Shown in pieces: positions 4,195 through 62,032 of a DNA stretch of 64,000 nucleotides; the first letter of the stretch is position 1; each line of letters begins with the position of its first letter. Position numbers and translations under genes: made by a program. The notes under the pieces were generated by a model. The model saw only the letters and a program-made list of their open reading frames with translations. It was not told the origin of the DNA and did not search any database. Source of the stretch: a phage; the sequence record PZ379176.1; one strand, written 5' to 3'.

Positions 4195-4470
4195 GCTTAA
4201 TCTTTCTCCTGTATTGTGCCGTAGTCATGCCTATGGTCATAATCTATCTGATGCTTTAAATCCTTCCTATAAGCCTCGCTATGAGGCTTTTTCTTTTCTA
4301 AGGTGATTGTATACCTTACTCCCTTTTAGCTCATTGTGATGCGTTATAGGCCGCTTGTTATCGCTTTACAAGCCTTTTCCTATGATGTATCACGTTCGCC
4401 CGCTCTTTTACCTTCCTATAGTGAAAAAGTTTAAAATATTTTGTTTTACCCTATTGCATCCCTCACTGAT

Positions 4471-4479
4471 TAATGTATA
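4471..4479 (+). promoter_or_regulatory. TAATGTATA motif (candidate phage-specific promoter element)
   Basis: Exact 9-mer also found upstream of genes at 36225, 42593 and on the minus strand at 52425-52433. Confidence 0.35.
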
Positions 4480-4579
4480 CTTCATTTCATCGGGTACGAT
4501 GTAAAACATACAAGGCAAGGAAACTTGCCCCGCTCTTTAAAAATCAGGCTAGAAAGTGAAAATATTCTTAAAAAGAGTA

Positions 4580-4608
4580 TTGACACCGAAAACAGCCTGA
4601 TATATAGT
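4580..4608 (+). promoter_or_regulatory. sigma70-like promoter (TTGACA-N17-TATAGT)
   Basis: Near-consensus -35 and -10 hexamers with 17-nt spacer, inside a 2-kb ORF-poor region. Confidence 0.6.
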
Positions 4609-5212
4609 GAGCATAGTCAGCGATGACTTAAAAAATCCCGCTCTTTAAAAATATGATTTGTCTTACGGGTGGCGGCGACGTCATTACTATAAGGCGCTCA
4701 GTTAATCGGTAGAATTGATTCCTGATTCATACGTGACGCAGGCGGACAATAAGCAATATCAATAAGCCTTATTTGTTCGATACTTTCAAAAGATTAATGC
4801 TTGAAAGCGCACTAGATTCCCTGAAAGACAAATCAGACTTATCATCTTGCCCTTTCGCATAGATTCACGCGAGATAAGGGAAAGGAATTAAAAGAAGATG
4901 ATAAAAAGAGTTGCAAACGTGGTTAAAGTAGTCCATACTAACCACAAGTTAGCAAAACATCGCTAACTAGTTCCCAAATCAACGTATCGCGGGAAAGGTG
5001 GCACATAGTGCAGCGATTAGTTCAGGTGTAGGCGGCCTGTTAATGAATCAGTAAGCCTTCAATGTGACAGTGATTAGCAGACACTTTAAAAGGCTAAACG
5101 CTCTTTAACAATATGAGTCATAAGTTAAGCCTCACCGCTTAATCTTCAATCAAATAAAGCTGATTGATATATCCTCCCAATAGCGGGAACGACGAAAAAG
5201 ATTAAAAAGCGG

Positions 5213-5241
5213 TTGACAGCGAAAACAACATGATTCATAAT
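5213..5241 (+). promoter_or_regulatory. sigma70-like promoter (TTGACA-N17-CATAAT)
   Basis: Near-consensus hexamers; spacer shares CGAAAAC with the 4580 promoter. Confidence 0.6.
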
Positions 5242-6162
5242 GAGCACTCACTAAGCAAATCATCGCTTCAGTGAAAAGCGTAACAACGGCTAACAGTTGC
5301 ATAGTGTGAGAAAGCACACTGATAGATTTACCGCTCTTTAATAATTTAAACATTCTCCTATATCGGTTGAATATGCTTGATGATAATAACCATCGGAAAG
5401 CATACCAGATAAAACGGCGTAAAACTCCCTAAATTATCAGGGTAAACAGTTTTACATTCCCTTACTGGAAACGTCACCATTGATAAACGGATTCATTGAG
5501 TACACGCAAAGACTTAAGCTAATCGCCCACGGTTAAGGGTAGCGGCGGTCATCGCTAACATGGTGCTACGGTGAAAGAAGTTAATCAGGGTAGGCAATCC
5601 CGACGAATTAACGCTCAATTGAGAGCGGCGGTGAATGGTTAAAAAGTGGCAAATTGCTATTTAACAATAAGGTTTAGTGTGAACGTTTACGATGTGAACG
5701 GCTTGAGATTCATCTTATGATGAAAGTACATAGTCGGTTTATGTAGTAAACTTGCCGAAAGATATAAAACGTCGGAACATTAGACGGTCAATGACTCTTT
5801 CGCAATAGTATCCCGTAGTGGGCGATGACTAGCGATTGAGAGTTGATATAAAAGGATAGGCGAGAGCGAAAGCAAAGTAAACGATATTGCCGACGGTTAC
5901 AATAACGTAACTAATTAGAGTCGGACGCACTGCCTTATTGTGATGATTGATCATCGCTATCAGGTCGGCTTCGTTTATAGCGACTAATTAAAGATACCAG
6001 ATGAAACATCACGGATAAGGGGGCGGCAAGGTTAACTCCTGATAAGACCGCCCCGCTTACCTATAACTACTTACAATGAGTGGTTATAGTTAAGTCAATA
6101 GTGACTTGAATTGCTCATAGAGAGCGGGGCAATAGCGCCCTTACAATTGAAAGGTGAATATT

Positions 6163-8492: not shown

Positions 8493-9305
8493 ATGAAAGC
8501 ATTTGCATTGTCAGCTATTCTAGTTTTATCTGCCATTAGTGCCCCATCCTTTGCTCATTCTGACAAATGCTCACACTCTAAACAGTGTGAAGTCCAGCAG
8601 GGGCCGAAAGGTGATAAAGGAGAACAGGGTATTCAAGGCGAACAAGGTCCGAAAGGTGACAAGGGTGATCGCGGAGAGCAGGGCTTAAAAGGTGATACTG
8701 GATCGGCTGGCATCAATGGTAAAGATGGCATCAATGGTAAAGATGGCATTGATGGTAAAGATGGCATTGATGGTAAAGATGGCATCAATGGTAAAGATGG
8801 CATCAATGGTAAAGATGGCATTGATGGTAAAGATGGCATTGATGGTAAAGATGGCGCTCAAGGTGAAAAAGGTGATTCTGGTGCAGATGGTAAGAAAGGC
8901 GAAACTGGCCTAACTGGTGCAGCAGGTTTGAATGGCGTTGACGGATTAAATGGCAAAAATGGTAAAGATGCAGATATGTCTGCCGTTAATGCTAACGCCA
9001 AATCTATCAAAGCTCTGGAACAATCCACCAACAAACGTTTTGCTTCTTTGCAAAAACAAGTAGACCGTAACCGTGATCATGCCTCTGCTGGTATTTCTGG
9101 CGTGGCTGCAATGGCTAACATCCCGCAAGTAAGTCAAGGATCTGCTTTCTCTGTTGGTGCTGGGGTAGGTGCTTACGATGGTGAATCTGCTCTTGCTATT
9201 GGTGTTAGTGCTCGTTTCAATGAAAACGTAGTAACTAAAGCATCAGTGGCAATGACTTCAGAGAGTGACGCTGTTCTGGGCGCTGGTGTAAGTTACGAGT
9301 GGTAA
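8493..9305 (+). CDS. secreted collagen-like repeat protein with YadA-like C-terminal anchor
   Basis: Signal-like N-terminus MKAFALSAILVLSAISAPSFA; long Gly-X-Y tract (GPKGDKGEQG...GINGKDGIDGKDG...); C-terminus ends GAGVSYEW, resembling trimeric-autotransporter anchors. Confidence 0.7.
   Translation: MKAFALSAILVLSAISAPSFAHSDKCSHSKQCEVQQGPKGDKGEQGIQGEQGPKGDKGDRGEQGLKGDTGSAGINGKDGINGKDGIDGKDGIDGKDGINGKDGINGKDGIDGKDGIDGKDGAQGEKGDSGADGKKGETGLTGAAGLNGVDGLNGKNGKDADMSAVNANAKSIKALEQSTNKRFASLQKQVDRNRDHASAGISGVAAMANIPQVSQGSAFSVGAGVGAYDGESALAIGVSARFNENVVTKASVAMTSESDAVLGAGVSYEW
8709..8852 (+). repeat. eight tandem 18-nt repeats (GGCAT[C/T][A/G]ATGGTAAAGAT) inside the collagen-like gene
   Basis: Direct reading: units alternate ATCAAT and ATTGAT in pairs, encoding GINGKD/GIDGKD. 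Confidence 0.9.
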
Positions 9306-12883: not shown

Positions 12884-12959
12884 GCGCTCTTAGCTCAATG
12901 GATAGAGCAGTAGCCTTCTAAGCTATTGGTTACAGGTTCGAGTCCTGTAGGGCGCACCA
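12884..12959 (+). tRNA. tRNA-Arg (anticodon UCU), CCA encoded
   Basis: Manual cloverleaf: acceptor GCGCTCT/AGGGCGC, D-arm GCTC/GAGC, anticodon loop CTTCTAA, T-arm ACAGG-TTCGAGT-CCTGT, discriminator A + CCA. Confidence 0.85.
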
Positions 12960-32482: not shown

Positions 32483-33038
32483 GAATGTTTTTGATTTACC
32501 TGAGATTGGTCGTGACAGCTATAGCATGTTAGACCGGTCCGACCTATCAATCTCTCGCCTTGAAACAATGCAAGGCATGATTAGTGGAAACAGCCTAGAA
32601 CACATCCTGAGCTGCTTACAAGCTAACATGGAACTCTTGCATATCAAAGCTAAAAACTACCACTGGAACGTCTCTGGTGCAGGATTTCAGGGTGTTCATG
32701 GTATGTTTGATGAGCTGGAAGATTACGCACGACAGGTAGGAGATCGTATTGCTGAACGTATGCGTTACCACTGTGTTAAAGTGGATGCTACAGCAGCTAA
32801 TTATCTTTCTCATGCTTGGTTCTCAGAGGGGAATGCTGATCTAGACATGGACGGTATGCTCTCTGATATGTGCATGACCTTGATGTGTATTATTGAGAAG
32901 ATGGATGAGTTTGATGGTGATTTAGCCTCCTACCCTGTCGATCAGAGTATGCTTCAAGAAATTAATGAAGGTCTTGGCAAGTATTGCTACTTCGTCAAGA
33001 GCAACATGTCCCATTCAAGTGGTGACGTGTCTTACTAA
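32460..33038 (+). CDS. Dps-like ferritin-superfamily protein
   Basis: LQANMELLHIKAKNYHWNVSGAGFQGVHGMFDELEDY...DRIAER matches the Dps core signature; start at 32460 or 32475. Confidence 0.6.
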   Translation: MEKTQMHKNVFDLPEIGRDSYSMLDRSDLSISRLETMQGMISGNSLEHILSCLQANMELLHIKAKNYHWNVSGAGFQGVHGMFDELEDYARQVGDRIAERMRYHCVKVDATAANYLSHAWFSEGNADLDMDGMLSDMCMTLMCIIEKMDEFDGDLASYPVDQSMLQEINEGLGKYCYFVKSNMSHSSGDVSY

Positions 33039-37498: not shown

Positions 37499-37661
37499 GT
37501 GATGAAAGAATACATTTACGTAGGACAGCGCTGGTTCGGCGATGAATGGGAAGGCGGATACAGCGTTGTGAAAGCTTTTAAGTCGGAAGAAGATGCCAAG
37601 TCATGGGTCTTAAAAGACGATGTTGGCGAGAGAACTTACATTGAAGTAGAGGTGGAGTAGG

Positions 37662-38084
37662 ATGCCATTACCAGCTAGATATCCAAACCGTTTCTTAGTT
37701 CTCAAGTGGGATGATATCGAAATGAATCTCACTGAACATGAACTGGATTTGTTCCATGAATTATTATCAGAAATTCGCTCTGGTATTCCTGAACGTCAGT
37801 ATGTGGTTATCAGTGATAAACACCCTCAAGAGTTTGAAGAGGCTTGGGGTATGAAGCTGGCTTATATTCAGAGAGCTATTCAAGAAAGAGAAGAAGTTGC
37901 CAATCAGAGGGTTGTGGCTCATTTAGTACGAGAGCAACCTCGTGAAGCTAGGGCTAACCATGCACCACCTCCACCCCCTCCTTGGACAGTTGTCAACGGG
38001 ACGGTTAGGGCTTATAGTGATGAAGCTACCATGTTGAATGTAGTAGAAGATAACCAAGCCTTTACAGATTTACTTTACCAATAA
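37662..38084 (+). CDS. hypothetical protein (140 aa) with proline run
   Basis: ORF track; HAPPPPPPW. Confidence 0.45.
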   Translation: MPLPARYPNRFLVLKWDDIEMNLTEHELDLFHELLSEIRSGIPERQYVVISDKHPQEFEEAWGMKLAYIQRAIQEREEVANQRVVAHLVREQPREARANHAPPPPPPWTVVNGTVRAYSDEATMLNVVEDNQAFTDLLYQ

Positions 38085-38100
38085 TTTAAAGGAGTATAAA

Positions 38101-39944
38101 GTGAGCAACCCGGACGCTCTTCCATTTTTGACAGAGATGACTGTCGCTGATATAATCTCTAAGCAAGCAAAGCACGGAGTGAGTTTCAACCGAAGAAATG
38201 CTCGGTGGTATGTTCACCTCCTTAAAGAGATTATTGTTAATATTGACAGAGAGTTGATTCCTCTCTTACCTAAGATGAGATTAGATGGCTCTACTTACAT
38301 GAAGCCATTTAAGAAGTCTGGAGCTTTACAGAAGTGGCCTCAAGCCTATTGTGATAGGGTTGGGCTGAAAAGAGAAGATATTGGTGGAGCTTTCACCTGC
38401 GTCGAATACGTAGACTTTGACCCATCGAAAGATGCACGAGTTAAAGAAGCTCTTATGGATGAGGGTTTTCTTCCTCCAGAGTTTAACGTATCTAAGAAGC
38501 CTTGGAATACTTTCGAAATTAAGAAAGATATGCGAAAGTATGGAACATACCAAGCATGGTATACTGCTTGGATGCGAGGTAATGCTAAGCAAAAGCAGAC
38601 AGCCGAGATGGTTGACGCTGATATTAAGAAGTTCTTAGAAAAGCATTTCAGGTTTAAAACTAAGAACTATATGAAGGCTTACGTATTTGGTTTGGGATTA
38701 AACCCGAATCGCCGTAATCCTGTAACGTTTGATGAGATTAAGAAAGCACTAGCCACATCAAACAAGTGGCCTACAGCTCCTACAAACCTCGAGGAGACTC
38801 TTGAAGAAGGGTTAGGGGTGAGCTAGGGAGTGTCGGAAGTTTGCTTAAGAGACGCGTTGTAGCGGCTCACAGGCTAGGTCTTATCAGTGGACTCATAGCA
38901 AAGGAACGCGAAGATGGTAAACTTTCGGCAGAAGCTAACAGCTGCGCTACGCCGACTTTTCGATTCAAACATCGTATCGTGGTTAATATTCCCTCCCGTG
39001 GTCTGTTTGGTCACGAGTGTCGCAGTTTGTTTGAGTCTGACTATAACTCAGACAGTGATCACTCTCGTCCTTTCGTTATTACTAACGTTGTTCCTGATGG
39101 TTGTTATATACGAAAAGGTACTAACGTAATTTACGAGAAAGGTAAGCCGGGGAAGAAAGATAAACCTATAGGTGCTTACAAATATTACATACCCGCTGGT
39201 AAAGAAGTATTCTTAGGGTATGATGGTTCTGGACTTGAACTTCGTATGCTCGCTCACTACCTCATTAAAGAGTGTAGGGATATGCTTGCTGAGGCAATTG
39301 AAGAGAACAACCCAGCTAAGAAAGCTCTGGCAGAACGTGGTTTAGCTTCTGCTATTATGTATCGTGATATTCTCCTTGAAGGTGATATCCACTCCCACAA
39401 CCAGAAACTTGCTGGTCTTCCTACTCGTGACAACGCTAAGACGTTTATCTACGCATTCAACTATGGTGCTGGTGATGCTAAGCTTGGTTCAATTGTAGGT
39501 GGTGGGGCTGACGAAGGTTCAGTGATGCGAGCACGTTTCTTAGCAGAGAACCCATGTATTGCAATCCTCATTGATCGTATGACAGAGAAAGCTGCTCAAG
39601 GATACTTGATTGGAGTTGATGGTCGTAAGATTACAATGAGACGGGATGCCACTGGTAAGGTTATGGTTCATAAAGCCCTTAACACACTCCTGCAATGTGC
39701 TGGTGCTGTTGTTATGAAATATGCTATGATGTTCCTTAACAAGTGGATTGAGAAAGATAAGGTTCGTTGTGCTAAGGTAATTGATATGCACGATGAAGGT
39801 CAATTCTCAGTAAACCGTAATGATGTACAGAAACTCAAAGAGCACACCGAGCTTTGTGTTAAGAAAGCTGGCGAGTATCTGAATATGGAATGTCCTCTGG
39901 CATCTGATTGTCAGATTGGACTTAACTGGATGCATACACACTAA
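38101..39944 (+). CDS. DNA polymerase, polymerase domain (T7 gp5-like palm/fingers), interrupted by a frame break near 38805-38826
   Basis: SKQAKHGVSFN; EDGK...FRFKHRIVVNIPSRGLFGHECRSLF; DGSGLELRMLAHY; LPTRDNAKTFIYAFNYGAGDAKLG; MHDEGQF parallel T7 gp5; GTG start with SD AAAGGAG. Confidence 0.8.
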
Positions 39945-40008
39945 GGTGAGTGATGAAAGAAACCAATATCATCTACAGAACATTGAGATGTTTAGCTAAA
40001 GAGAGGGG

Positions 40009-40317
40009 ATGGAGGATTTCCTCCTCCAATATTATGAAATAGCTAAGACTGGAATTTATCCAAAATGGTTTAGTGAAGATCAAGGATTATGCTTCAACTT
40101 TCGCTGTTATAAGAGGTATTACTATTTCACAAAGCATTTAGATATTGACGACATGAAGAATATGTTTAATCAAGAAAAGTTTTTTGACCCAACATACCCA
40201 TTCGGATGTGATCAATATTTTAGAGATAGGGAAAACGGGGCACATCATAAGAATCCAAAACGACGTGCTTGGATTAAAGATACACTGAAAACTCTATATA
40301 ATATTGAGGTTGAGTGA
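40009..40317 (+). CDS. hypothetical protein (102 aa)
   Basis: ORF track. Confidence 0.4.
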   Translation: MEDFLLQYYEIAKTGIYPKWFSEDQGLCFNFRCYKRYYYFTKHLDIDDMKNMFNQEKFFDPTYPFGCDQYFRDRENGAHHKNPKRRAWIKDTLKTLYNIEVE

Positions 40318-61873: not shown

Positions 61874-62032
61874 CTACATAAGAAAGAGGGGCATTGCCCC
61901 CGTCTTAAATACTCTCTGCTCAACAAATCGAGCATTTATAGCATTAGTGAAAGCATTAGGAGCTAAGTCTGTCGGAGCCTGATCAGCGATAACGCCTACA
62001 GCACCTAACGACTTTATTGGATACAGCGCCAT
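61874..62032 (-). CDS. hypothetical small protein (52 aa)
   Basis: ATG with AGGAGG SD between tail-fibre and Ig-domain genes; below track cut-off. Confidence 0.25.
   Translation of the reverse strand: MALYPIKSLGAVGVIADQAPTDLAPNAFTNAINARFVEQRVFKTGAMPLFLM

Follow-up and report, generated by a model that had tools for sequence, protein, structure and literature searches.

The interruption of the DNA polymerase gene in this phage sequence very probably results from a homopolymer under-call in the sequencing or assembly of this record. The window analysed here, the whole stretch of 64,000 nt, is that of a phiEco32-like (Kuravirus) E. coli podophage, and its family A polymerase gene is read in two pieces (Table 1). 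The frame break is plainly present in the sequence itself, with no statistical signal involved. It is no real biological feature, and what it interrupts is the family A polymerase already known from phiEco32-type phages.

By comparison with related sequences, we infer that the base was lost in the record, rather than in the phage DNA. In nature this phiEco32-like (Kuravirus) phage would have an intact, ordinary family A DNA polymerase gene. One G of a run of five appears to have been dropped from the sequence as deposited or assembled, a loss that would shift the frame at codon 240 and thereby produce the apparent pair of ORFs. The real phage most likely has all five G's, from which normal translation would yield a single 614-aa polymerase of ~69 kDa. 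The reading as an error follows from the fact that four G's at this site were seen in no related sequence.

Table 1. Coordinates of the polymerase gene, its two reading frames and the other interrupted genes of the window
Feature	Position	Strand	Description
Family A DNA polymerase gene	38101..39944	+	Orthologue of phiEco32 phi32_53 and Bas90_0046; 1844 nt vs 1845 nt in relatives
5' piece, ORF1	38101..38826	+	GTG start; ...EEGLGVS, then TAG at 38824-38826; 241 aa
3' piece, ORF2, -1 frame	38805..39944	+	Stop at 39942-39944; 367-aa product
GGGG run, putative missing-base site	38815..38818	+	GGGGG in every related sequence compared
GFAT-like aminotransferase (Bas90_0080 homologue)	24242	+	A6 to A5 vs Bas90 and DE5; frame shifts ~80 codons before the end
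ATP-grasp / 'S6 glutaminyl transferase' gene (Bas90_0077 homologue)	25361	+	CCCCTCTCT to CCCCCTCT; 1-nt deletion mid-protein
1005-aa tail protein (Bas90_0013 homologue)	61898	-	C6 to C5 (coding-strand G6 to G5), ~codon 46

The polymerase gene and its relatives

An earlier note on this DNA had described an ORF that ends at a stop codon and a continuation that is open in the -1 frame from 38805, and re-reading the window bore out these coordinates. The nearest 5' stop in the -1 frame is the TGA at 38802-38804, and the earliest in-frame start codon of the 3' piece is a TTG at 38841. The two frames overlap at 38805-38826, and the break falls at codon 239/240 of the repaired polymerase. Codons 1-239 of the first ORF are those of the relatives' polymerase, followed by an out-of-frame V, an S and the TAG. 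The 3' piece is homologous to codons 240-614 of the relatives, beginning at 38817.

A megablast search with positions 37600-40100 matched 120 phage records with identities of up to 98%, and most of these belong to Escherichia phages of the phiEco32 group (Kuravirus, Gordonclarkvirinae). In phiEco32 itself (NC_010324.1) the corresponding gene, phi32_53, is a single CDS of 1845 nt and 614 aa, annotated as 'DNA polymerase, lacks 5'-3' and 3'-5' exonuclease domains', and Bas90 likewise has one 1845-nt CDS. A Kuravirus orthologue is expected to be a single syntenic CDS of about 1845 nt, which the window lacks as deposited and gains when one G is restored. The restored ORF has no internal stop, encodes 614 aa and contains no exonuclease domains. 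The second ORF matches the Pfam family DNA_pol_A (PF00476) at 83.1 bits (cut-off 34.3; E = 2.4e-23), and the first ORF by itself has no Pfam match.

The nearest known system is the group formed by phiEco32 gp53 (YP_001671798.1) and its orthologues Bas90_0046, SU10 CDS51 and YF01 gp49. These are exonuclease-less family A polymerases, like that of the window, and they occupy the same genomic place, 3' of PhoH and a set of small ORFs. The DNA is 96-98% identical, and the repaired protein is identical at 613 of 614 residues. The group has G5 and one ORF whereas the window has one G fewer and two ORFs; nothing else of consequence differs. All members of the phiEco32 group have one polymerase, with the exonucleases encoded separately (PMC9965538), and mass spectrometry has detected the SU10 polymerase as a product of 69.1 kDa (PMC4281155).

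The 140-aa ORF that lies just 5' of the polymerase gene carries a difference of its own. At 37957-37976 a 9-nt in-frame insertion, judged against phiEco32, EcK-vB and one IMG/VR contig, lengthens a proline run (PPPPPP).

The earlier note had also pointed out that both sides of the break parallel consecutive segments of T7 gp5, and this is confirmed by a collinear alignment. The repaired 614-aa product aligns with T7 gp5 (1skr) at E = 1.2e-32, with residues 63-135 matching T7 295-363, 269-337 matching 410-481, 370-390 matching 470-490 and 421-614 matching 496-704. The break lies between the first two of these segments, 5' of motif A. The N-terminal segments are individually weak, at ~9 bits each.

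Motifs A (D..SxxE), B (RxxxKxxxFxxxYG) and C (HDE) are represented by GYDGSGLELR, RDNAKTFIYAFNYG and MHDEGQ, each aligned to the corresponding T7 motif. Thus the thumb, palm and fingers of the T7 gene 5 DNA polymerase (PDB 1skr, 1t7p, 6n7w) are collinearly similar to the window polymerase, and all three motifs are conserved between them: A (YDGSGLELR in the window vs DASGLELR in T7), B (PTRDNAKTFIYAFNYGAG) and C (HDE). The window polymerase differs from T7 gp5 in that it is without the N-terminal 3'-5' exonuclease domain, and the alignment is strong only in the C-terminal ~200 residues.

Both halves of the gene show purifying selection, each in its own frame, as would be expected if the break were an error. 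Over the 612 codons compared, the repaired gene differs from that of phiEco32 by 37 nucleotides and a single amino acid. In codons 1-238 there are no amino acid differences, with 21 nucleotide differences from phiEco32 and 11 from Bas90. On the 3' side of the break there is one amino acid difference in 374 codons, with 16 nucleotide differences from phiEco32 and 13 from Bas90. No decay is seen in the part that is out of frame, as would be expected of an artefact or of a change that happened extremely recently.

The guanine run at the junction

The MAFFT alignment of the gene with those of phiEco32 and Bas90 contains exactly one gap column, and it lies within the G-run. The window reads TTA-GGGG-TGAGC at the junction, vs TTA-GGGGG-TGA in both references. 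We sought a compensating second indel in the gene alignment and found none. The note had placed the frame change near TTAGGGGTG (38812-38820), and the G-run lies within this stretch.

The note had called for a comparison with homologous phages, and this comparison yields G5 and an uninterrupted frame in the relatives. A 44-mer query carrying the G4 junction matched 94 phage records, none of them (0/94) at 99% identity or above; among the matches listed, each spans one base more than the aligned part of the query, i.e. 45 bases for the full 44. The corresponding 45-mer, repaired to G5, is identical at 100% to 49 records. IMG/VR was scanned with a pattern that accepted G4 as well as G5; the three contigs obtained each carry the 35-nt (G5) version, and their alignment agrees. 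A further contig from NCBI (GCA_001292545.1, CYGL01002143.1), which was reached via the neighbouring 140-aa protein, also has G5 at the site.

This NCBI contig is a 4-kb phiEco32-like fragment that has frame problems of its own. Owing to 1-nt indels, its PhoH is called as two pieces and its polymerase as three.

The same region was compared at the protein level with a tblastn query of 132 repaired residues around the junction. There are 137 records with one place that covers at least 80% of this query, and among the matches listed every one is a single uninterrupted piece. Full-length matches reach down to 47-52% identity, in phages of Proteus, Cronobacter, Aeromonas and Salmonella. Neither of the truncated products, of 241 and 367 aa, has an exact entry in an index of 153 billion genes.

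An error of this type should appear as a one-base indel in a mononucleotide run that is unique to the record, and the change from G5 to G4 is exactly that. The earlier note had left the choice between a homopolymer indel and translation by -1 frameshifting. The first of these is strongly supported, with G4 in this record vs G5 everywhere compared, and the second is not, with no heptamer, structure or conservation to be found.

Other single-base differences in the window and in sister records

If the record has lost one base in a conserved gene, then indels of the same kind may be expected to break other conserved genes in it, and this was found. We aligned the whole window to Bas90, and its left 25 kb also to DE5. 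There are three further isolated 1-nt deletions within conserved genes, where the relatives' protein carries on in another frame of the window (Table 1). Searches with short queries located these alleles among related records. At 24242, A6 is found in 64 of 69 records and A5 is common to EcK-vB, EcM-vB1, EcP-vB and two others. At 25361 the gene is intact in 30/31 records, and the allele of the window is common to EcM-vB1 only. The site at 61898 is intact in all but one of 96 records (95/96), and here the allele is common to EcK-vB only.

The named records that carry the window's alleles, i.e. EcK-vB, EcM-vB1 and EcP-vB, all come from one sewage study. All three lack the G4 state in their polymerase gene. 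We looked in detail at only one of these records, EcK-vB (PV591327.1). Its long ORFs contain at least 10 isolated 1-nt deletions within 38 kb, just 26 features are annotated, and the record has the look of an assembly that was not polished. The comparison between records used stop-to-stop ORFs of at least 100 codons and is noisy, owing to antisense ORFs and divergent ends, so these counts are for rough use only. The same comparison found no isolated frameshift in the annotated genes of the segments taken from DE5 (23 kb) and phiEco32 (9 kb).

We also asked whether it is Bas90 that deviates at the four sites. This was rejected, as the large majority of records side with Bas90 at all four.

Run lengths differ by one nucleotide between genes as well, at 4293, 14598, 33037, 5200, 17081 and 3217. 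Most of these differences are losses in the window, although they are unpolarised, with one or two relatives compared. The difference at 33037, which lies at a stop codon, is common to phiEco32 and EcK-vB and is harmless. Single-base deletions that break four conserved genes within 64 kb, among them the gene of a large virion protein, are characteristic of an error-prone assembly that has not been polished, rather than of a viable phage.

Some other features of the window are recorded here for completeness. Positions 4300-6150 comprise ~1.8 kb without an ORF of at least 70 aa, a region that is unannotated in Bas90 and DE5 too and that has no Rfam match. It contains two sigma-70-like promoters with 11/12 matches, at 4580-4608 and 5213-5241 on the plus strand, while the total count of promoter-like sequences is not above that of shuffles. 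At 8708-8855 there is an 18-nt tandem repeat of 8.2 copies with 95% match and the consensus TGGCATCAATGGTAAAGA, which sits within the homologue of the Bas90_0117 'tail protein'; a 9-nt in-frame insertion relative to Bas90 is found at 8679. A single tRNA gene is located at 12884-12956 on the plus strand (Rfam RF00005, 72.4 bits), and the syntenic gene of Bas90 is annotated as tRNA-Arg.

Real deletion, split enzyme or recoding

Could the four G's be real? They are present in the sequence as given, and some sequencing platforms seldom miscall homopolymers as short as a G5 that is read as G4, which counts against an under-call. We nevertheless consider it unlikely that the deletion is real in the phage or in a large fraction of its population, either as a very recent and possibly defective variant or as two polypeptides that assemble. 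The scarcity of amino acid changes 3' of the break would be compatible with a very recent event. That said, the G4 allele is in no other sequence compared, and no relative is split at the site, down to the ~47% identity reached by tblastn. Furthermore, a viable phage would need to tolerate three more frameshifts, one of them at about codon 46 of the 1005-aa tail protein.

A split enzyme would consist of a ~27-kDa and a ~41-kDa polypeptide, with the 3' piece re-initiated at the TTG at 38841 after the TAG that ends the first ORF. A Shine-Dalgarno-like GGGAG at 38827-38831, 9 nt before this TTG, could permit the 3' piece to be translated separately, which again counts against an under-call. However, the bases from GGGAG to TTG are identical in the relatives, where they encode LGSVGSLL. 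As the same bases merely encode part of the protein there, they have not been selected as a start site and the motif is incidental.

The LUZ24/PaP3-like Pseudomonas phages were examined as a possible precedent, since their family A polymerase is spread over more than one gene and their part II is homologous to the window gene. Here the split parts a small part I from the polymerase, and the 545-aa part II reads straight through the point where the window is broken. The tblastn matches to part II begin 11 residues past the break, but its annotated start is 212-213 codons upstream: part II starts at position 1865 in one locus (L009) and 1862 in the other (L010), and the aligned junction region begins at 2501. 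The division between part I and part II is thus located elsewhere, and we rejected it as a precedent. Among the relatives and LUZ24-like loci compared, none provides a natural precedent for a polymerase divided at this point.

It is highly improbable that G4 is correct and that the phage is viable with its sole family A polymerase interrupted at codon 240, whether by means of two associating polypeptides, the second started at TTG 38841, or of non-canonical -1 frameshifting at A-GGG-G. If true, a replicative polymerase would have been split or recoded spontaneously at a point where none of its natural relatives is divided.

Programmed recoding appears less probable still, to the point of being barely credible. 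Here G4 would be correct and the full-length polymerase would be made by -1 ribosomal frameshifting within 38805-38826 or by transcriptional slippage on the G-run. The polymerase gene is presumably important, and a -1 shift anywhere in 38817-38823 would restore the relatives' protein exactly or nearly (...EEGLGGELGS...); the junction peptide of the fused, full-length product would be LGGELGSVGSLLK. An overlapping ORF pair that is fused by a -1 shift is also known from E. coli and phage genes such as dnaX and the tail chaperone genes G/GT. Unlike these systems, the window lacks a slippery heptamer, a stimulatory structure and conservation of the break, and the relatives encode the fusion in one frame. 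The zero-frame codons of the overlap are GAA GAA GGG TTA GGG GTG AGC TAG, and no heptamer of the form X XXY YYZ occurs in 38805-38826. Because the base before the GGG codon is an A, a tRNA-Gly that slipped back by one base would mispair.

Nor does the RNA downstream stand out. The 82 nt at 38819-38900 have a minimum free energy of -22.6 kcal/mol, vs -22.0 +/- 3.05 for shuffled sequences (z = -0.20). The frame break is common to 0 of the 94 records, and the junction is uninterrupted in the relatives. These have the same flanking bases and need no frameshift, so there is nothing here that could be selected as a recoding signal. Programmed -1 frameshifting was accordingly rejected. Transcriptional slippage normally takes place on long A/T runs, for which four G's are far too short, and it was also rejected as the run is just 4 G and the fusion is directly encoded in the relatives.

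The homopolymer under-call, which we prefer, has practical consequences for the annotation of this phage. Either the record should be corrected or the gene marked as frameshifted, which would avoid its annotation as two proteins or as a case of recoding. The broken genes at 24242, 25361 and 61898 need the same treatment. Were the four G's true, it would be of moderate interest that a replicative polymerase is made from a template that is split or shifted. As an under-call the finding is biologically minor, since the gene is already well known.
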